The translations under genes and the position numbers were made by a program. The notes beneath the pieces were generated by a model, which saw only the letters and a program-made list of their open reading frames with translations, was not told the DNA's origin and searched no databases. Source: Anaerolineae bacterium (GTDB taxonomy: Bacteria; Chloroflexota; Anaerolineae; S140-20). From it: a stretch of DNA of 38,801 nt. The DNA lies in the NCBI GenBank assembly GCA_027021705.1, contig JALUTT010000025.1, positions 1 through 38,801 on the forward strand, read 5' to 3'. Position 1 is the stretch's first letter. The number at the start of each line of letters is the position of its first letter. This document shows, one piece after another, positions 1 through 20,853 of this stretch.

Positions 1-400
1 CCGCCGACAGCTATCCGTTGACAGCCATTCGCTCAATCCGTTCAATCCGCTCCCAAATCCGTTGACAGCCATCCGTTCAATCCGTTCCTTGAATCCGCCG
101 ACAGCTATCCGTTGACAGCCATTCGCTCAATCCGTTCAATCCGCTCCCAAATCCGTTGACAGCCATCCGTTCAATCCGTTCCTTGAATCCGCCGACAGCT
201 ATCCGTGGACAGCCATTCGCTCAATCCGTTCAATCCGCTCCCAAATCCGTTGACAGCCATCCGTTCAATCCGTTCCTTGAATCCGCCGACAGCTATCCGT
301 TGACAGCCATTCGCTCAATCCGTTCAATCCGCTCCCAAATCCGTTGACAGCCATCCGTTCAATCCGTTCTTGAATCCGTTGACAGCTATCCGCTAACAGC
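1..400. repeat. Tandem array of a 94-bp unit (4 copies plus a degenerate tail; possibly truncated by the window edge)
   Basis: The unit CCGCCGACAGCTATCCGTTGACAGCC...TCCGTTCCTTGAAT restarts at 1, 95, 189 and 283. Copy 3 has one substitution and copy 4 a 1-bp deletion. The unit is built from (A)ATCCGTT and TTGACAGCC sub-motifs, with no unique spacers. Confidence 0.95.
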
Positions 401-430
401 CCCCCGTTCCCAACGGACTGGAGGAACAAA

Positions 431-3400
431 TTGGGCAGAAGAGGACGGTTGGAACCGGTCGGAATCCTGTTCGCCTTCGCCGTCGGCCTGGCGCTGATGG
501 GGGCTTTCGGCGGCCAAGGGGATGCTCTCTCGGCTTCCCCCACCCCCTCTTCTCCCCTCCCCACCCCCCTGCCCTCCCTGCAAGAGGGCCTGCGTCCCCT
601 CCCGCCTGACACACCGCAGCTCCAGGCCCTGCGCGAAGCCGCCTTCCTGCTGGGCGAGGGTGACCGCCTCAGCGCCGCCGGCCAACAGGAAGAAGCTCGG
701 GAAAGGTGGCGAGAGGCGGCGGAGGCCTATCGCCGGGCAGAAGAGCCGCTGGGCGAAGCGGAAGCCTACCTCCGCCTGGCCGATTCCTACGTCCAGGCCG
801 GGCTGCTCAACCCTCAGAACCAGCAGAGGGCCTTCGATTCCTATTTCCAAGCCCTCCTGGCCGCCAGTCAGGTCTACGAGACACTCATCCAGGAGCGCTT
901 TCCCTACGACCAGGAAACGCTGGCCCAGGCCGAGGCCCGCTACGACGAAGGGGTAACCCTTATCCAACAGGGCCTGTGCGCCCAGGCCATCCCCCTGCTG
1001 GACGAAGCCCGCCGCCTCTACGCCCAAGCCGACTTTGGCGCCGGCGAGGTCCGGGCCCTGGCCTTCAAAGCCCGCTGCCTGGCGGCTCAGGACGACCCCC
1101 TCAGCGCCCTCAATGCCCTGACCACGATGCTGGAGGCCGTGCCCATCGTCCAAAGCCTCCCACTGGGCACCTCGACCGATGAGACCTACCTAGAGGGCCA
1201 GGACCGGCTGGCCCAGGGCGATTTGGATGGGGCCCGGGCTGCCTTCGAGAAGGCCCTGGCCGGCTACCAAGAGGCCGGGGAGCCCGACAACGTTGCCCAG
1301 GTCACCCTGGACCTGGCCAGCGTCTACGCCCTGCAAGGGGACTACCCCCAGGCCGAGCGTCTCTACCGCCAGGCCCTGGCCGCCTTCGCCGCGCAGGGGG
1401 ATCGCCGGAACGAGGCCACAGCCTGGCACAACCTGGGCAACCTGACCGTCATCACCGGCCGCTATGAAGAGGCCGTCACCGCCTACCGGACCGCCCTCCA
1501 GACCTGGCAACGCCTGGGCGATCCGGCCAATGAGGTCGCTTCCCTTAGCGGCTTGGGGCTGGCCCTCCACGGGCAGGGGGAGTACGCCGCTGCCCTGAAC
1601 GTCCTCGAGCGGGCTCTCGCCCTCCAGCAACGGCTGTCGCCCAACCCGGAGATCGAGGGCGACCTGCTCAACAACCTCGGTCGCGTCCACTACAGCCAAG
1701 GCGACTACCGGCAGGCCCTCGAACGCTTCCGGCAAGCCCTCGCCTTGCGCCGGGAGCTGCCCTACCGTCTGAAGGAAGCCGAAACCCTCTCCAACATCGC
1801 CGCCGTCCACGCCAGCCTGGGCCGTTTCGAGGAGGCGCTGACAGAATACCAACAGGCCGTCGCCCTGGAAGCGGAGCTGGGGTTGCCCCTCCTGGAGGCC
1901 AAGACCCGCCTCAACATCGCCGCCGTACAGATTCAGCGGGGGGAGTACCAGGCCGGCATCGCCACGTACCTCCAGGCCCTCCCCACCTTCGTGGAGCAGG
2001 GCGAGCGTCCCACCGAAGCCGCCATCCACCTCAACGTGGGCAGCGCCTACATCCTGCTCGGTGACCGGGATGCCGCCCGCGCTCACCTCGCCCAGGCCCT
2101 GGACCTCTTCGCAGCCATCGGGAACCCTGAAGGCGAAGCGACGGTCCACACCAACCTGGGGCTGTTGGCCCTCCAGGAGGGCGATTTGGACGGAGCCGAG
2201 CACCACCTGCAACAGGCCCTGACCCTCTGGCGCGACCTGGGCAACGCCACCGCCGCCGGCCGGGTGCTGGGCAACCTGGCCCTCCTCGCCCTCGGCCGAG
2301 GAAACCTTCAGGCCGCCCTGGACAACGCCAAGGCAGCCCTGAGCCAGAGCGAGACCACGGGCAATCAGGCCGACCAAGGCCGCCTCCTGATCACCATCGG
2401 CCTGATCCGTCTGGCCCAGGACGACGCCTCGGCGGCCCTGGACGCAGGGGGGCGGGCGCTCGCCCTCGCCGCTCAGGTGGGCGATCCGCTGGCCACCATC
2501 GGGGGCCACGTCGTCCTCGCCCTGGCCTACACCCTCCAAGGGGAGCGCCCACGGGCCTACGAACAGGTCCAGGAGGCCATCGCCCGGTTGGAAGCCCTTC
2601 ACGGGACCATCACCGTGGCCGAGTTGAAGACCGCCTTCCTGGGCAACCTGGCCGATCTCTACGGCCTGGCCGTCTTCCTGGCCACCGAGATGGGCCAACC
2701 CGAAGCCGCCTTCCGGTACGCCGAACAGGCCCGGGCCCGTGCCTTTCTGGACCAGTTGGCCAACCGTCGGCTGGGCTTCCGACGTGCCCTGGACCCGGCC
2801 TTGGCCGAAGAGGAGAGCCGACTGCGCCTCGCTCTGCGCGCGCTGGAGCAGCAACTGGCTCAGGAACGGGCCCGCCCTGTGAACCGGCGCCGGGAGGCGG
2901 CTATCGAGCAACTCACCCTCGAACTGGACCGCCGCCGCCAGGAATATGCCCGCATTCTGGCCGAACTCCGCCTCCAGAGCCCCCGCTACGCCGCGATGGT
3001 CAGCGGTGAGGTCCTCCCCTTGGCTCAGATCCAGGCCCTCCTGGATGACCGAACCACCCTGGTCGCCTACTTCCTGACCGCTCCTACGATCTCCCTCCTC
3101 CTCCATCCTGACCGTGGAAGCCCATCAGGAGCCGGCGAAGAGGGCTATGGATGCGATGGAGGCTGCGCCTACGCCTTCGTGATCCGCCACGACCGCTTCA
3201 CCCAGGTCCGGCTGCCCCTCTCCACCCGCGAGATCGTCAACCTGGTCTACCATGTTCGGGATCAGATGGGACCTCAGCCTCTGGCGGACCCGACCGCAGC
3301 GCTGGTTCAGCTCTACCAGGGGCTGATCGCCCCCCTGTTGCCCGAGCTGCCCCCCGGACGGCTGGGGATCATCCCCCACGGCTCCCTCTTCTACCTCCCT

Positions 3401-4228
3401 TTCGCCGCTCTGACCGATGGGGAGCGGTGGCTGGACGAGACCTACACCCTCTTCTACCTGCCCAGCGCCAGCCTGCTTCCCTACCTCGCGGACGGGTTCT
3501 CGGATTCGTCGGATGCATCCCCCCTGATCCTGGCCTACCCGGCGCCCCCCGGTCAACCTCGGCTGCGCTACGTGGAGGCCGAAGCCCGGACCGTCGCCCG
3601 TCTCTACGGTGTCTCCCCCTACCTGGGCCCCGAAGCGCAGGAGCGCCGGGTCAAAACCGACGCCCCTCAGACCTCCCTCCTGCACATCGCCGCCCACGGC
3701 ACTCTCGACCCCCGGGCTCCCCTCTTCTCCGCCTTGCTGTTGGCCGGCGATGAGGAGGAAGACGGCCGGCTGGAGGCCGGCGAGGTCTACGACCTGGACC
3801 TGAGTGCAGCCCGGCTGGTCGTGCTCAGCGCTTGCCAGACCCAGGGAGGCGAAGGGGTGGCAGGAGATGAGGTGATGGCGCTCCACCGGGCCTTCCTCTA
3901 CGCCGGGGCTCCGGCCGTCGTCGCCACCCTGTGGAACGTGGACGACCGGGCAACCGAGGAACTGATGGAGACCTTCTACGAGCACCTTCGCAGGGGAGCT
4001 CCGGCCGACGAGGCCCTGCGCCGGGCCCAGCAGGCAGTGCGTCAGCGTTACCCCTCTCCCTACTACTGGGCAGCTTTCACCCTGACCGGCGATCCCTCGA
4101 TCACCCTGCCGGGCCCCGGCACCTCCCCGCCGACATCGCTGCCCCAGGCGCCGTGCAGCCTCGGGCTGGGCTTGTTGGTGGCCGGGGGGATCGGGGGGCT
4201 AAGGCTTCGGAGACGGCGTCGGCAATGA
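431..4228 (+). CDS. TPR-CHAT (caspase/separase-like) protease, 1265 aa, with an N-terminal signal-like segment and a C-terminal hydrophobic/Arg tail
   Basis: TTG start with GGAGG RBS. Many ~40-aa TPRs (e.g. EATAWHNLGNL, EAETLSNIAAV), then AERARARAFLD-like pre-CHAT helix (AEQARARAFLDQL). CHAT motifs IIPHGSLFYLPFAAL, LLHIAAHG (His), LVVLSACQT (Cys), VVATLWNVDD and PYYWAAFTLTG. Confidence 0.93.
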   Translation: MGRRGRLEPVGILFAFAVGLALMGAFGGQGDALSASPTPSSPLPTPLPSLQEGLRPLPPDTPQLQALREAAFLLGEGDRLSAAGQQEEARERWREAAEAYRRAEEPLGEAEAYLRLADSYVQAGLLNPQNQQRAFDSYFQALLAASQVYETLIQERFPYDQETLAQAEARYDEGVTLIQQGLCAQAIPLLDEARRLYAQADFGAGEVRALAFKARCLAAQDDPLSALNALTTMLEAVPIVQSLPLGTSTDETYLEGQDRLAQGDLDGARAAFEKALAGYQEAGEPDNVAQVTLDLASVYALQGDYPQAERLYRQALAAFAAQGDRRNEATAWHNLGNLTVITGRYEEAVTAYRTALQTWQRLGDPANEVASLSGLGLALHGQGEYAAALNVLERALALQQRLSPNPEIEGDLLNNLGRVHYSQGDYRQALERFRQALALRRELPYRLKEAETLSNIAAVHASLGRFEEALTEYQQAVALEAELGLPLLEAKTRLNIAAVQIQRGEYQAGIATYLQALPTFVEQGERPTEAAIHLNVGSAYILLGDRDAARAHLAQALDLFAAIGNPEGEATVHTNLGLLALQEGDLDGAEHHLQQALTLWRDLGNATAAGRVLGNLALLALGRGNLQAALDNAKAALSQSETTGNQADQGRLLITIGLIRLAQDDASAALDAGGRALALAAQVGDPLATIGGHVVLALAYTLQGERPRAYEQVQEAIARLEALHGTITVAELKTAFLGNLADLYGLAVFLATEMGQPEAAFRYAEQARARAFLDQLANRRLGFRRALDPALAEEESRLRLALRALEQQLAQERARPVNRRREAAIEQLTLELDRRRQEYARILAELRLQSPRYAAMVSGEVLPLAQIQALLDDRTTLVAYFLTAPTISLLLHPDRGSPSGAGEEGYGCDGGCAYAFVIRHDRFTQVRLPLSTREIVNLVYHVRDQMGPQPLADPTAALVQLYQGLIAPLLPELPPGRLGIIPHGSLFYLPFAALTDGERWLDETYTLFYLPSASLLPYLADGFSDSSDASPLILAYPAPPGQPRLRYVEAEARTVARLYGVSPYLGPEAQERRVKTDAPQTSLLHIAAHGTLDPRAPLFSALLLAGDEEEDGRLEAGEVYDLDLSAARLVVLSACQTQGGEGVAGDEVMALHRAFLYAGAPAVVATLWNVDDRATEELMETFYEHLRRGAPADEALRRAQQAVRQRYPSPYYWAAFTLTGDPSITLPGPGTSPPTSLPQAPCSLGLGLLVAGGIGGLRLRRRRRQ

Positions 4229-5469
4229 CCAACGCGCCAGCGGGCCCAAAGCGTCGGAAAGATGGCTCAGGTGCCCCCGGCCCGCCCTCCCGATCCGCAG
4301 CGATCCGGGCCGCCGCAGCCCGCGACCGCCCCTACCGGGCCTTCGGAGAGCGGCTGCGGGCCTGGCGGCTGCGGGCCGGGATCGCTACCCAGCGCCAACT
4401 GGCCGAACGCCTCGACTACGATTACACCGCCATCTCCCACTGGGAGAGCGGCCGCCGCTGCCCTCCGCTGGACGTCCTGATCCGGCTGGTTGAAGTGCTG
4501 GTCGAAGCCGGCGGCATCGAGACCCCCGAAGAAGCCAACGAACTGCTCCGGCTGGCCGACCGACGCCCCCTTAACCCCGAGGAGGTCCAGCGCATCTTCG
4601 GCTCGACCGCCACCCCGGCTTCAAACAGGGGGGCCGGGCTCCCCCCCCGGCCTATCCCACCGGAAGAGGGGCCCGGCCCCCTTGTCGCCTCCGCTCCTCC
4701 GAGAGAGGCGACGACAGTAGAACGGATTGTCACGGGACTCCGCCGGCTGTGGACTTCTCACCGCCGATGGGGGCTCCCCCTGCTCCTCTCGCTCCTTCTC
4801 CTCGCCCTCCTGCTCCGTTTCCTCGGCGCCCCCTGGTTAGCTCGCCACTACAACACCCAGGGTCGCCAGGCCCTGCTTCAGGCACAGGACCCGGTGCGGG
4901 CGATGGACCGCTTCCGCCGGGCGGCCCGGCTCGACCCGGCCTCGGCGGTCTACCCCTACAACCTGGCCTTGGCCTGCCAGGAACTGGCCGACCTGGAGTG
5001 CGCCATCGAGGGCTATCGGGCTGCGCTGGAACGCAATCCCGATATGGTCCAGGCCTATAACAACCTGGGCACCCTGTTCATCCAGGTGGGCCGGTACGAC
5101 GACGCCATCCAGCTCCTGCGTCAGGGGGTGGCGCGGACGGCGGAGCCAACGATGACCGCCGTCCTCTACAAAAACCTGGGGGCAGCCCACTACGCCAAAG
5201 GGCTCTACCGGACCGCCCTGGAGGAACTGGAATGGTCCCGGTCATTGCTGGAATCGGCCGGCAAGCCGAACGCGAACACCTACGTCTGGCTGGCGGAGGT
5301 CTTCTGTCTGATGGGACAGGTTCACGACGCCCTCGGTCATCCCGACGATGCCCGGCGGGCCTGGCTCAACTGCCTGGGGCTGGCCGGCGCCATAGATACC
5401 CCCCTCGGCCGCGAGTGGGCGACCGAGGCCAGGGAGCGATTGCAACAAGCGGGCAGGGAGAGTCCGTAA
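4225..5469 (+). CDS. XRE-family HTH + single TM + TPR membrane-spanning regulator, 414 aa
   Basis: ATG overlaps the CHAT stop (ATGA). XRE HTH FGERLRAWRLRAGIATQRQLAERLDYDYTAISHWESGRRCP, Pro-rich linker, TM WGLPLLLSLLLLALLLRFLGA, then TPRs (YPYNLALA, AYNNLGTL, LYKNLGAA). Confidence 0.88.
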   Translation: MTNAPAGPKRRKDGSGAPGPPSRSAAIRAAAARDRPYRAFGERLRAWRLRAGIATQRQLAERLDYDYTAISHWESGRRCPPLDVLIRLVEVLVEAGGIETPEEANELLRLADRRPLNPEEVQRIFGSTATPASNRGAGLPPRPIPPEEGPGPLVASAPPREATTVERIVTGLRRLWTSHRRWGLPLLLSLLLLALLLRFLGAPWLARHYNTQGRQALLQAQDPVRAMDRFRRAARLDPASAVYPYNLALACQELADLECAIEGYRAALERNPDMVQAYNNLGTLFIQVGRYDDAIQLLRQGVARTAEPTMTAVLYKNLGAAHYAKGLYRTALEELEWSRSLLESAGKPNANTYVWLAEVFCLMGQVHDALGHPDDARRAWLNCLGLAGAIDTPLGREWATEARERLQQAGRESP

Positions 5470-5493
5470 GCGAGGGGACACGAGGAGGGGGAA

Positions 5494-6633
5494 ATGGGAA
5501 GGAAGAGCTTCTGGTACTACTGGCTGCTGCTGACAGGGGTGCTGATCCTGGCGGGGGTCGCCTGTGAGGAGGGAACGCCCGGCCCAACGGCGGAGGGACG
5601 GGCTGTCGCCACCCCGGTACCGACTCCTGCTTCAGCGATCTTGCCCAACCTGCTGATCCAGACCGAAGGTCAGGTCGCCCTCCGGCGGCTGGACTGGTAC
5701 GACTACCGGCCGGCCCCCTTCGGCGTGGAATTGCAGCCCGGCGACCTGCTGCGGATCGGGCCGGGAGGGCGTGCCCTCATCTTCTGTGGAGAGATCGGCA
5801 TCCTGGACCAGAACCCCATCCCTATGGGGGAAGGAGACCATCAGCCGATCCCCTGCTCCTCCTGGAGGCCGATCCCTTTGGAGGATCTCGCTCCACCCCG
5901 AGGCGGTCTGGAAAGCATCCCCTACGTCATCTTCCCCCGAGCCACCCGGCTGCTGAACCCCCGCCCGACCCTCCGATGGCACCTCTTGACCGGCATCACC
6001 ACCTACACCGTCTCCATCCGGGGTCGGGAGGGGATCGTGGCCTCGGCCCAGGTGCAGGGCAACGTCTGGCCCTATCCCTCCCATCTTCCCCCCTTATCGC
6101 CGGGGGAATCCTACCAAGTCATCGTCGAAGCCAACGGATATTCCTCAGAGGAAGACCCCACACCCTGGACGGGCTTCACCCTGCTCAGCGAAGAAGAAGC
6201 GGCAGCCGTCCACCGCCTCCGCGAACGGCTGGAGGCTCTTCCTCTGGAGGAATCGGCCCGCCGGCTGCTGACGGTGCACCTCTACACCGCCTACGAACTC
6301 AGGGGCGAGGCGCTTGAGCTGTTGCAGGGCGATGCTCTCATCCAGCAGGAGCCTGTCCCCGCCCGGCTCCTGGCCGACCTCTACTTCGATACTGCCCTCT
6401 ACGACGAAGCTTGGACCGCCTATCAGCAGGCCCTGCAACGGGCGGAGCAGTGGGGGGATTCGGAGGGGGTGGGGCTGGCCCTCGTCGGACTGGGATTGAC
6501 CAGCCACCATCTGGGGGATACCGCCAGCGCCGTCCGCTTTCTGGAGCAGGCCAAAGCCTTCTTCGAGGCGTTGGGCGACCGGAGGAGGACAGAACGGATC
6601 GAGGAGATACTGCAGGGGCTCCAAGGCCCGTAG
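5494..6633 (+). CDS. Putative lipoprotein with FecR-like N-terminal region, DUF928-like beta domain and C-terminal TPRs, 379 aa
   Basis: GAGGAGG RBS and signal peptide ending LAGVA-C (lipobox-like). TEGQVALRR...LQPGDLLRIGPGGRALIFC is FecR-like. PYVIFPRATRLLNPRPTLRW resembles the CHAT-associated DUF928-type segment. C-terminal TPR pair. Domain names are pattern-based. Confidence 0.75.
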   Translation: MGRKSFWYYWLLLTGVLILAGVACEEGTPGPTAEGRAVATPVPTPASAILPNLLIQTEGQVALRRLDWYDYRPAPFGVELQPGDLLRIGPGGRALIFCGEIGILDQNPIPMGEGDHQPIPCSSWRPIPLEDLAPPRGGLESIPYVIFPRATRLLNPRPTLRWHLLTGITTYTVSIRGREGIVASAQVQGNVWPYPSHLPPLSPGESYQVIVEANGYSSEEDPTPWTGFTLLSEEEAAAVHRLRERLEALPLEESARRLLTVHLYTAYELRGEALELLQGDALIQQEPVPARLLADLYFDTALYDEAWTAYQQALQRAEQWGDSEGVGLALVGLGLTSHHLGDTASAVRFLEQAKAFFEALGDRRRTERIEEILQGLQGP

Positions 6634-17261: not shown

Positions 17262-18497
17262 CTACCACCGGGAGGCCGAAGCAAGGGGTGGGGGGACCTC
17301 GGCTATCGCTGCCGGTGGCTGCCAGTCGGTGGGCCTCCAGGGAAAGGCCCCGTGTTGCATCAGGAGCACCCCGTCCCGGGTCGCCTCCTCCCGCAGGGTG
17401 CGCATCCCGGGGATGGTGTGGATAACCTCTCGGCCATCCTCGGTGATGTAGTGGGTCACGTCCTCTTCGGGAAGCGCACGCCGGAAGTGGACCAGCCCGA
17501 TGGCGGGCCACCCTTTCTCCCGGAACGCCCTCAGCCACTCGGCAATGCGCCGGACATCGCGCAGCGCGATGGTGAACGTCACCTCGTACACCAGGAAGCG
17601 GTATCCTGAGTCGGTTTTGAGCAGCATCACCCCATCGGGCACGGAGCTCACGTTCAGGTGCTCCTGCAGCTCTCCCGGCAGGTACTCGCGGGCGATGGAC
17701 ACGCCACGCCCCCGGAGCCAGATGCCGATCTCCCGATAAGCGCCGGCCTCGGCCGCAACCCCGGAGACGTCGTCGAGCCGAATCCGTTGTTCTCGGATTT
17801 CGCCCGTGAGCTTGGCGATCTGGACCTCGACCCGCTCCATCCGCTCCGTCAGCGCGGCGATCTGCCGACCGTTCTCGGCAATCTGCCGGCCGTTCTCGGC
17901 GATCTGGCCCTCGACCCGCTCCATCCGCTCCGTCAGCGCGGCGATCTGCCGACCGTTCTCGGCGATCTGCCGACCGTTCTCGGCGATCTGGGCCTCGACC
18001 CGCTCCATCCGCTCCGTCAGCGCGGCGATCTGCCGACCGTTCTCGGCGATCTGCCGACCGTTCTCGGCAATCTGCCGACCGTTCTCGGCGATCTGGGCCT
18101 CGACCCGCTCCATCCGCTCCGTCAGCGCGGCGATCTGCCGACCGTTCTCGGCAATCTGCCGGCCGTTCTCGGCAATGAGTCGGCCGTTCTCGGCGATCTG
18201 CCGAGTGTTCTCGGCGATGAGTCGGCTGTTCTCGGCAATCTGCCGGCTGTTCTCCTGGACCTGCCGGGTTAATTCGTGGAGAGCTTCGCCGACGGCCTTG
18301 AACCCCTCCTCCACCACCATAGCCAGGTGGTCGAGGCGGTCGGAGAGGTCTCGAATGCTCTCACGAAGTTCCTGCACCGAGGATTGCATCGCCTCCAGCA
18401 GGATACGTTGGACGGCTTCACGGAACGCCGCATCCTCGCGTAGAGCCCGGAGGAGGCGTGCTTTCTCTTCTGCTGTAAGGGAAGGGTTCACGGTCAT
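17262..18497 (-). CDS. Long coiled-coil protein with a C-terminal PD-(D/E)XK-like domain (DUF3782/DUF1626-like architecture), 411 aa
   Basis: N-terminal LLRALREDAAFREAV, heptad repeat stalk, C-terminal AE...VPDGVML...LVYEVT nuclease-like pattern. Confidence 0.75.
   Translation of the reverse strand: MTVNPSLTAEEKARLLRALREDAAFREAVQRILLEAMQSSVQELRESIRDLSDRLDHLAMVVEEGFKAVGEALHELTRQVQENSRQIAENSRLIAENTRQIAENGRLIAENGRQIAENGRQIAALTERMERVEAQIAENGRQIAENGRQIAENGRQIAALTERMERVEAQIAENGRQIAENGRQIAALTERMERVEGQIAENGRQIAENGRQIAALTERMERVEVQIAKLTGEIREQRIRLDDVSGVAAEAGAYREIGIWLRGRGVSIAREYLPGELQEHLNVSSVPDGVMLLKTDSGYRFLVYEVTFTIALRDVRRIAEWLRAFREKGWPAIGLVHFRRALPEEDVTHYITEDGREVIHTIPGMRTLREEATRDGVLLMQHGAFPWRPTDWQPPAAIAEVPPPLASASRW
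17812..18260 (-). repeat. Intragenic in-frame tandem repeats (21-bp and 42-bp units)
   Basis: 12 copies of IAENxRx and 4 copies of IAALTERMERVExQ, near-identical at the DNA level. Confidence 0.95.
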
Positions 18498-20560: not shown

Positions 20561-20853
20561 TCGGCGTCGGGAGACTCGGCGCCGGGAGACGCCTCCTACA
20601 TCTGGCCGGCGTAGGAGGGCTATCCTAGCCCGACCTCGGCGTCGGAGGACTCGGCGTCGGGAGACTCGGCGTCGGGAGACGCCTCCTACATCCAACCGGC
20701 GTAGGAGGGCTATTCTAGCCCGACCTCGGCGTCGGGAGACGCCTCCTACATCTGGCCGGCGTAGGAAGGCTATCCTAGCCCGACCTCGGCGTCGGAGGAC
20801 CCGGCGTCGGGAGACTCGGCGTCAGAGGACGCCTCCTACATCCAACCGGCGTA
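20561..20853. repeat. GTAG-family REP/REPIN-like cluster
   Basis: GTAGGA(G/A)GGCTAT(C/T)CTAGCCCGA at 20611, 20701 and 20761. Inverted partner TCGGCGTCGGGAGACGCCTCCTAC-like at 20576, 20666, 20726 and 20816. 15-bp sub-repeats and a 150-bp higher-order duplication. Confidence 0.85.

Follow-up and report, generated by a model that had tools for sequence, protein, structure and literature searches.

A conserved Chloroflexota gene cassette of a predicted exported TPR-CHAT protease, a TPR receptor-like membrane protein and an MtxA-like lipoprotein

The contig JALUTT010000025.1 of an Anaerolineae bacterium (Chloroflexota; assembly GCA_027021705.1) was analysed over its whole length of 38,801 nucleotides, which is called the window here. 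Near its 5' end lie three genes for proteins with tetratricopeptide repeats (TPR): a TPR-CHAT protease, a membrane protein with a helix-turn-helix (HTH) domain of the XRE type, and a lipoprotein. An initial annotation, made from the sequence alone, had described them as three linked open reading frames (ORFs), all with TPRs. Both statements hold, as the sequence confirms the positions, the ATGA overlap of genes 1 and 2 and the gap of 24 nt between genes 2 and 3, and Pfam matches TPRs in all three proteins. The TTG start of gene 1, with which the signal peptide is included in the protein, is supported by the GGAGGA found 5 nt upstream, and a GAGGAGG is present upstream of gene 3. Since the window, which is the whole contig, starts 430 nt 5' of gene 1, there is no upstream gene context. 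The genes are located as follows (coordinates in the window, evidence in brackets):

420..425, + strand: Shine-Dalgarno sequence GGAGGA, 5 nt 5' of the TTG start of gene 1 (sequence)
431..4228, + strand: gene 1, TPR-CHAT protease, predicted to be exported and C-terminally anchored, 1265 aa (ORF, translation, Pfam)
4225..5469, + strand: gene 2, protein with XRE-HTH, single membrane helix and TPR ectodomain, 414 aa (ORF, Pfam)
5494..6633, + strand: gene 3, MtxA-like TPR lipoprotein (predicted), 379 aa (ORF, AlphaFold2 (AF2) model, Foldseek)

The protein encoded by gene 1 is composed of an N-terminal signal, a TPR array, the CHAT domain and a C-terminal anchor:

431..529, + strand: predicted signal peptide, aa 1-33 (basic n-region, hydrophobic stretch 10-28, GDA/LS), followed by a Pro/Ser/Thr linker
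1178..2380, + strand: TPR array, about aa 250-650 (TPR_12 E 1e-65 in 7 stretches, plus other TPR families)
3299..4093, + strand: CHAT domain, aa 957-1221 (PF12770, profile positions 3-289 of 289)
4142..4225, + strand: predicted C-terminal membrane anchor with RRRRRQ tail, aa 1238-1265 (hydropathy, conservation)

The Pfam match of the CHAT domain has an E-value of 1.5e-69 (235.1 bits, cut-off 24), and a phmmer search with this region gave no matches among PDB sequences at E<=0.01. His1089 lies within 'LLHIAAHG' (codon 3695-3697) and Cys1135 within 'LSACQT' (codon 3833-3835). We take these two columns to be the catalytic dyad, relying on knowledge of the motifs and not on a structural superposition. 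Both residues had been read as intact in the initial annotation, which is in line with their invariance in all 13 CHAT proteins of the cassettes described below. The N-terminal segment 10-28 reaches a Kyte-Doolittle hydropathy of 2.09-2.45, while the C-terminus consists of a short Gly-rich hydrophobic segment followed by RRRRRQ and ends with '...PCSLGLGLLVAGGIGGLRLRRRRRQ'. The sorting-signal models of NCBIfam match this C-terminus weakly (GVDTG_CTERM, E 0.011, 16 bits, cut-off 29). The combination of an N-terminal signal and a C-terminal anchor, as first annotated, is borne out by hydropathy and by the cassette relatives. A hydrophobic N-terminal signal is present in 13 of the 13 CHAT proteins, usually with an AxA-like site at its end, and 11 of the 13 have a hydrophobic C-terminal helix. 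The basic tail is visible in ten of these, and in the eleventh it lies beyond the end of the retrieved sequence. All signal and membrane assignments in this study come from hydropathy, motifs and conservation; on this basis the TPR-CHAT part of gene 1 is predicted to be located outside the cytoplasmic membrane.

The receptor-like protein encoded by gene 2 shows the order of parts given in the initial annotation, i.e., an XRE HTH, one transmembrane helix and TPRs, as judged from Pfam (HTH_31/HTH_3) and hydropathy:

4339..4500, + strand: XRE-type HTH, aa 39-92, followed by a Pro-rich linker 93-180 (Pfam)
4771..4839, + strand: predicted transmembrane helix, aa 183-205 (hydropathy)
4840..5466, + strand: predicted TPR ectodomain, aa 206-414, the conserved portion of the protein (alignment)

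The HTH is matched by HTH_31 (E 2.3e-11, 44.3 bits, cut-off 27) and by HTH_3 (E 2.9e-9, 37.3 bits, cut-off 23). One hydrophobic helix was found (184-202, Kyte-Doolittle 2.35), and in an alignment with 12 receptor-like relatives it coincides with their last membrane helix. Pfam places the TPRs from about residue 215 to 345. The C-terminal part is thus TPR, unlike that of RodZ, whose C-terminal domain DUF4115 is absent from the 22 families listed at E<=0.1. The ectodomains of the receptors can be aligned from the last membrane helix ('AR.YN..G') to a common C-terminal motif. Within this region Cys361 and Cys383 are both kept in 10 of 13 sequences and both lost in the other 3. As they are kept or lost jointly, they follow the pattern of a disulfide, which argues for an extracytoplasmic domain. 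When 401 genomes were searched with the full-length protein, 12 genomes other than its own matched at E<=1e-12, and 8 of the 12 best non-self matches are genes adjoining the lipoprotein gene. Every match in the reciprocal search begins at a residue number of at least 164. By these sequence comparisons the receptor ectodomain is orthologous across the cassettes, and conservation of the membrane protein is limited to its outer TPR part. Within the same genome, the ectodomain has its best paralogue in an 890-aa minus-strand ORF (G000:C73:75257-77929, E 2.9e-28).

The third protein carries three domains behind its signal:

5494..5565, + strand: predicted lipoprotein signal, aa 1-24, lipobox AGVAC, Cys24 (motif; family consensus L-x-A-C)
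5641..5868, + strand: N-terminal beta domain, aa 50-125, with the invariant Cys98 and Cys121 (alignment, model, co-fold)
5920..6186, + strand: Ig/fn3-like domain, aa 143-231 (model; match to the Ig-like domain of MtxA)
6190..6621, + strand: C-terminal TPR domain, aa 233-376 (TPR_12 E 2.1e-9; model helices 233-376)

The lipobox had already been noted in the initial annotation; it agrees with the consensus of the family and, together with the LGT matches in the genome, marks the product as a lipoprotein with predicted lipidation. The TPR_12 match covers residues 292-358, and 255 residues before it are without a Pfam match. The AF2 model (predicted local distance difference test, pLDDT, 90.7; predicted template modelling score, pTM, 0.84) displays beta (52-118), Ig-like (145-230) and TPR (233-376) domains. 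In Foldseek its top PDB match is 4z29, MtxA (E 2.5e-4, template modelling score 0.68 on the target, 180 columns), the structurally aligned residues being 17% identical. The gene 3 family profile has 172 matches at E<=1, and the 60 of these that were listed do not include 4z29. A wide VIA-align search with the whole model gave TPR proteins only. With the model of the isolated beta domain (pLDDT 90.3) only 5ix9, an adhesin retention domain, stood out (Z 8.8, root mean square deviation 3.0, 71 residues), the next-best fold match having Z 4.1.

A word-index search with the gene 3 protein found one true relative, and the family was recovered by exhaustive phmmer. With the non-TPR part (aa 1-255) as query against 1.84 billion representatives, 846 were obtained at E<=1e-3, of which 430 reach E<=1e-10 and 13 reach E<=1e-30. 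Their lengths are mostly 350-390 aa, and the named members come from metagenome-assembled genomes labelled Anaerolineae, Ardenticatenales or Anaerolineales. The alignment of 61 members contains the lipobox consensus, the invariant Cys98/Cys121 and a conserved 'PR.T.LL..RP.LRW'. The label 'FecR/DUF928-like', which the initial annotation had given to this protein, found no confirmation in Pfam. FecR (PF04773) does not match gene 3 at E<=0.1, nor does it occur in the list of 25 families for the 61 relatives, and the fold search with the isolated beta domain did not recover it. DUF928 (PF06051) likewise has no match on gene 3 at E<=0.1 and matches 6 of the 61 relatives weakly (best E 0.015). A likeness to either would be remote at best; the solved fold that the protein resembles is MtxA. 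Weak fn3 matches occur in 7 of the 61 relatives. Two family representatives, P0061 (1002 aa) and P0280 (762 aa), have the lipoprotein module behind further parts, namely an N-terminal domain, membrane segments, a segment that by eye resembles a WD40-type propeller and a second, partial beta-domain match. Judged from these sequences, the family is also found as a membrane-anchored fusion (P0061, P0280; one member labelled Ardenticatenales).

Gene neighbourhoods were taken from genomes sampled in the phylum and class to which the window belongs. The non-TPR query of gene 3 matched 11 of 401 class genomes. In the phylum sample the family profile matched 92 of 401 genomes, only 5 of them over the non-TPR part and the others in the TPRs only. 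Together with the genome G010, the class matches and the non-TPR matches of the phylum sample yielded 16 loci of the gene 3 family, which are spread over 15 genomes and at least 10 GTDB families. A TPR-CHAT gene adjoins the lipoprotein gene at 12 of the 14 loci unaffected by contig ends; the loci of G662 and G480 end at a contig edge. A membrane protein with a C-terminal TPR part matching residues 215-414 of the gene 2 protein is adjacent to the lipoprotein at 13 of 16 loci and fused to it at one. Ten loci have the order receptor, lipoprotein, CHAT, and the window has the order CHAT, receptor, lipoprotein. The flanks of the cassettes are unrelated housekeeping genes that vary from genome to genome (hydrolases, an S9 peptidase, CysNC, aconitase, isocitrate dehydrogenase, a sulfotransferase, an APH-type kinase). 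The genes that the initial annotation had grouped from a single locus are thus linked in other genomes with differing flanks, and by this neighbourhood evidence the triad is a conserved cassette and not a one-off.

It is very improbable that three unrelated TPR proteins, one of them a cytoplasmic CHAT protease, have become neighbours by accident. Such a view could point to the generic nature of TPR similarity, as a word-index search with the gene 2 ectodomain returned only unspecific TPR proteins. However, the neighbourhood counts contradict it, since the genes recur together at 12 of 14 and 14 of 16 loci in differing contexts, and so do the conserved export signals, the receptor-lipoprotein fusion and the co-fold that passed its controls (see below).

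Two of the loci have surroundings of their own kind. The G010 locus (L012, G010:C22:7000-24000) is a cluster of exported or membrane proteases with weak M64-like, papain C1 and C25-like matches, which also holds a CHAT-GIFT/ABC_transp_aux protein, a CHAT-helix-TPR receptor, the lipoprotein and two consecutive TPR-CHAT genes. The lipoprotein of the G425 locus (L045, G425:C168) is one of the weaker family members. Its neighbours are a Macro-domain protein and two proteins with FGE-sulfatase domains, of which one has a NACHT NTPase domain in addition, and neither a CHAT nor a receptor gene is located there.

Receptor and lipoprotein probably bind each other, because they are fused in one genome and their co-fold passes controls. 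The fusion protein of G767 (801 aa) consists of the 'WWW' domain described below, three membrane segments, the receptor TPR (242-430) and the lipoprotein module (473-798), and no membrane segment separates the last two modules. When residues 46-379 of the lipoprotein and 205-414 of the receptor were folded together, the score was 0.62 (median of 0.68, 0.62 and 0.00), and the best of 3 controls reached 0.00. Among solved complexes 116 of 157 attain this mark, and among mismatched pairs 2 of 215. The partner pLDDT was at least 82. The predicted interface brings the beta domain of the lipoprotein (64-69, 82-85, 116-124) together with the C-terminal end of the receptor (343-406) and lies on conserved patches, namely G83/D84 and the vicinity of C121 in the lipoprotein, and W380, the vicinity of C383 and 399-406 in the receptor. 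Its geometry is compatible with the G767 fusion. The interaction of these two proteins, which the initial annotation had placed in one complex, is therefore backed by a natural fusion and by a co-fold of 0.62 against 0.00 in the controls.

The initial annotation had all three TPR regions facing the outside, and this prediction is supported by the conserved signals, the joint Cys pair of the receptor, and the lipobox and invariant cysteines of the lipoprotein. To define the outside, the envelope genes of the host were inspected. The genome (5.19 Mb, 94.9% complete) contains 2 sortase genes, M50 intramembrane proteases and 4 LGT matches, all above cut-off, and in the same 94.9% complete genome no match to Omp85 was obtained. 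In control genomes the sortase set was found in Gram-positives and Omp85 in diderms. LPXTG-like sorting signals end several other host proteins. Because of the two sortases and the missing Omp85 match, this member of the Chloroflexota most likely has a single membrane (monoderm-type), and outside would then mean the outer face of that membrane.

In contrast to the ectodomain, the cytoplasmic part differs among the 14 receptor-like proteins: an XRE HTH is present in 2, CHAT in 1, a 'WWW' domain in 10 and a short N-terminus in 1. The HTH-type receptors are those of the window and of G480 (HTH_31 E 9.8e-10, followed by three hydrophobic segments). The receptor of G010 has an N-terminal CHAT domain without signal peptide, in which His and Cys are retained. 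The 'WWW' domain comprises ~110 residues, is helical, carries 'WWW' at its end and is followed by three hydrophobic segments; no match to it was found in Pfam, in PADLOC or in the ESM Atlas (nothing usable). The XRE regulator, a defining part of the system in the initial annotation, loses this place with an HTH in only 2 of 14 receptor-like partners. Varying cytoplasmic domains behind a common ectodomain are, at the level of domain content, as expected for interchangeable outputs.

Starting from the observed anatomy, conservation, fusion and predicted receptor-lipoprotein contact, we propose a three-protein module on the outer face of the membrane, in which a CHAT cut of the receptor/lipoprotein would be followed by release of the output, as proposed for the Myxococcus protein DdvA but split over three polypeptides. 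To this model we give an even chance of being right. The TPR-CHAT protease would be exported via its cleavable signal peptide and held by the C-terminal helix, with a short Arg-rich tail in the cytoplasm. The MtxA-like lipoprotein would dock with its N-terminal beta domain on the C-terminal end of the gene 2 TPR ectodomain, so that the pair would form the receptor. The gene 2 protein would span the membrane and present inside, as output, the XRE HTH on a Pro-rich linker of ~90 residues. A cue from outside would activate the CHAT protease, which would cut the receptor/lipoprotein complex (site-1 cut). The cytoplasmic domain might then be freed or activated by an M50 protease within the membrane or by a change of conformation, and the HTH would alter transcription. 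In this scheme we infer the protease activity, its substrate, the relay and the DNA binding. Cleavage is favoured because an intact protease is kept with the pair, because the exchangeable payloads resemble released parts, and because the same scheme has been proposed for DdvA.

Several findings weigh against this cleavage relay. The loci of G425 and G767 have no CHAT gene nearby, and G425, like one of the two G499 loci (L047), lacks a receptor. Genomes of one class are kin, so that the counts over the 16 loci overstate their independence. The calibration of the co-fold applies only roughly to our self-built alignments; moreover, one of the three runs gave 0.00, and the agreement between runs is stated only as 'at least 0%' of contacts. 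The 'WWW' N-domain found in 10 of 14 receptors has no known output function and is followed by three membrane segments, and no conserved regulator was found beside the 'WWW' cassettes, so that the transcriptional output may be a lineage-specific add-on. The two HTH domains (window and G480) share only 25% identity (E 0.01), and no HTH-bearing homologue of the gene 2 protein was found in the 401 genomes. Finally, the TPR of gene 2 begins directly after the helix ('ARHYNTQG' at ~207) with no obvious juxtamembrane linker, whereas DdvA, in the part of its description used here, has a linker of 50 residues.

The lack of a juxtamembrane linker between helix and TPR would suit signalling without cleavage, in which the receptor/lipoprotein senses a ligand and the tethered HTH acts by oligomerisation or conformational change. 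The CHAT protease would then process the ligand or recycle the complex and not release the HTH. Membrane-tethered action is known for one-component regulators such as ToxR, CadC and BcrR, and with its long Pro-rich linker (93-180) in the cytoplasm the HTH might get to the DNA even when tethered. The receptor-lipoprotein contact, backed by co-fold and fusion, is also in favour of this explanation. However, a protease that is catalytically intact by motif is retained beside the pair at 12 of 14 assessable loci, and outputs like the cytoplasmic CHAT of G010 are easier explained by release. We therefore regard signalling without cleavage as unlikely.

Rather unlikely, too, is a role as surface processing machine, in which the anchored CHAT protease trims exported proteins or peptides, receptor and lipoprotein serve as adaptors, and the HTH autoregulates the operon. 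Clan CD peptidases include surface-protein processing enzymes and transpeptidases, most cassettes are without a recognisable output domain (10 of 14 of the 'WWW' type), and in G010 the cassette is part of a cluster that has four CHAT-bearing genes as well as weak papain-like, C25-like and M64-like matches. However, the cassettes contain no conserved candidate substrate gene and their flanks are unrelated, and the cytoplasmic domains of the receptors vary like the outputs of sensors.

Known CHAT proteases of the caspase fold, such as separase and Craspase, act as switches in the cytoplasm, and to our knowledge DdvA is the sole characterised CHAT protease outside the membrane. Among characterised systems the one closest to the cassette is DdvA, an anti-sigma factor with a periplasmic TPR-CHAT that is wired to transcription (PMC11506125, in the part of the paper used here). 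In that part, an RseP-dependent step is demonstrated, and the CHAT cut and the signal are not (PMC11506125). Within the same limits, both systems have a TPR-CHAT with a His-Cys dyad outside the cytoplasmic membrane (here predicted), couple it across one membrane helix to a transcription factor, and share a proposed logic of a signal-induced CHAT site-1 cut followed by an M50 protease. DdvA, as presented there, combines a zinc anti-sigma domain, helix and TPR-CHAT in one polypeptide and acts with a sigma factor of the extracytoplasmic function (ECF) type. In contrast, the protease of the window is a separate protein with an N-terminal signal peptide, a C-terminal anchor and no cytoplasmic domain; a second protein, which has a TPR ectodomain of its own, carries the XRE HTH output, and the lipoprotein is a third, obligatory partner. 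The three proteins have no sigma or anti-sigma domain, and no sigma family was detected in the 30 scanned ORFs. By domains and layout the cassette falls outside the DdvA family, yet by analogy it would work most like DdvA. The initial annotation had known of no described system of such kind, a statement that is not supported as it stands, since DdvA is a described case of an extracytoplasmic TPR-CHAT wired to transcription (PMC11506125, same part).

A role in defence or kin conflict, as for DdvA, would mean that the module detects phage attack or envelope damage and triggers a response. Besides the DdvA precedent, this could be brought in line with the 13 CHAT genes of the genome and with the weaker family member that adjoins NACHT-FGE-sulfatase and Macro-domain genes. 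However, PADLOC gave generic TPR/HTH matches only, and no defence genes flank the window cassette, which has lipB and the 2-oxoacid dehydrogenase operon downstream, or the cassettes of most other genomes. We consider a defence role quite unlikely.

For the lipoprotein the closest comparison is MtxA of Magnetospirillum (PDB 4z29), an exported Ig-like and TPR protein encoded beside a CHASE2 adenylate cyclase; in the portion of the report consulted, deletion of mtxA caused no phenotype (PMC4439547). As far as this portion goes, MtxA and the gene 3 protein are both exported and consist of an N-terminal, an Ig-like and a short TPR domain, and both genes adjoin one for a membrane sensor with cytoplasmic output. 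The partner differs, as it is a TPR-ectodomain protein here and CHASE2 there. The term CHAT does not occur in the MtxA paper.

Craspase (Cas7-11, the TPR-CHAT Csx29, Csx30 and RpoE) resembles the cassette in using a TPR-CHAT protease as a switch upstream of transcription. However, it is cytoplasmic and RNA-guided, and no CRISPR array or Cas gene was found in the window. The Csx29 model (NCBIfam NF041237) scores 35.5 bits on gene 1 at a cut-off of 300; gene 1 is not a member of the Csx29/Craspase family. The initial annotation had seen no CRISPR, sigma factor or kinase in the window, and indeed no sigma factor, kinase or Cas gene is present among the 30 large window ORFs scanned, and no CRISPR-like array was found in the window. 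The ToxR/CadC topology suggested there for gene 2 stands as an arrangement, since ToxR, CadC and BcrR likewise have their DNA-binding domain in the cytoplasm and, across a membrane span, a sensor outside. Membership in that family does not stand, as ToxR and CadC have an OmpR-type winged helix, whereas gene 2 matches XRE-type HTH families only. We know of no membrane-bound one-component regulator with a dedicated exported caspase-like protease. A description of the triad, or a text naming both DUF928 and CHAT, was not found in the literature searched, with subscription journals outside its scope. Taken as a whole, the interpretation given in the initial annotation is partly supported.

Within its own genome the triad is single-copy, alongside the 13 CHAT genes. 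Its 3' neighbours lie on the opposite strand and are housekeeping genes (lipB, UPF0175, and the genes for 2-oxoacid dehydrogenase E3, E2 and E1). A promoter scan gave 0 sigma-70-like sites, and a convincing terminator 3' of gene 3 was not found. No RNA sequencing run is listed as containing the sequence, and the DNA runs that contain it come from 3 studies. Directly 5' of gene 1, from the contig end (window 1-410), extends a tandem array with a 94-nt unit (4.3 copies, 97% matches), which is composed of ATCCGTT heptamers and ~13 copies of a 22-nt motif containing TTGACA. A function as operator array for the HTH was considered and rejected, because the same heptamer arrays occur at 47 sites in the genome. 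At 16 of these sites the array lies within 300 nt of a contig end, and the arrays represent a dispersed repeat family that probably breaks the assembly. Four of the 13 host CHAT genes (contigs C25, C49, C80 and C133) lie within 1.5 kb of a heptamer array, against a background of 156 of 4169 (3.7%) crude ORFs of at least 300 aa, a count that is biased by contig ends. Further repeats in the window are in-frame tandem repeats of 21 nt and 84-105 nt at 17814-18254, inside a minus-strand ORF (17262-18497) with weak Pfam matches of coiled-coil or surface-antigen type. Between two minus-strand ORFs, at 20561-20853, there are tandem repeats with periods of 30, 60, 90 and 150 nt, including GC-rich palindromic pieces.

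In comparison with DdvA, the split form would be easier to dissect, as protease, receptor and co-receptor are separate soluble ectodomains that could be expressed individually. The natural fusion and the co-fold model point to one interface, and natural variants carry different cytoplasmic payloads. A more general reading, which is possible and held only tentatively, is that of a modular protease-gated transmembrane relay, widespread in single-membrane Chloroflexota, in which one exported caspase-like protease and one MtxA-like co-receptor would act on a common TPR receptor that carries an exchangeable payload freed by cleavage. If true, the payloads would be an XRE repressor or activator (window, G480), a cytoplasmic CHAT protease (G010) and the 'WWW' domain in most genomes, and the G010 system would be a two-step caspase cascade across the membrane. 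The cassette gives a first functional context for two uncharacterised families, the MtxA-like lipoproteins (846 representatives) and the 'WWW' TPR receptors, and it may report extracellular events to gene expression.

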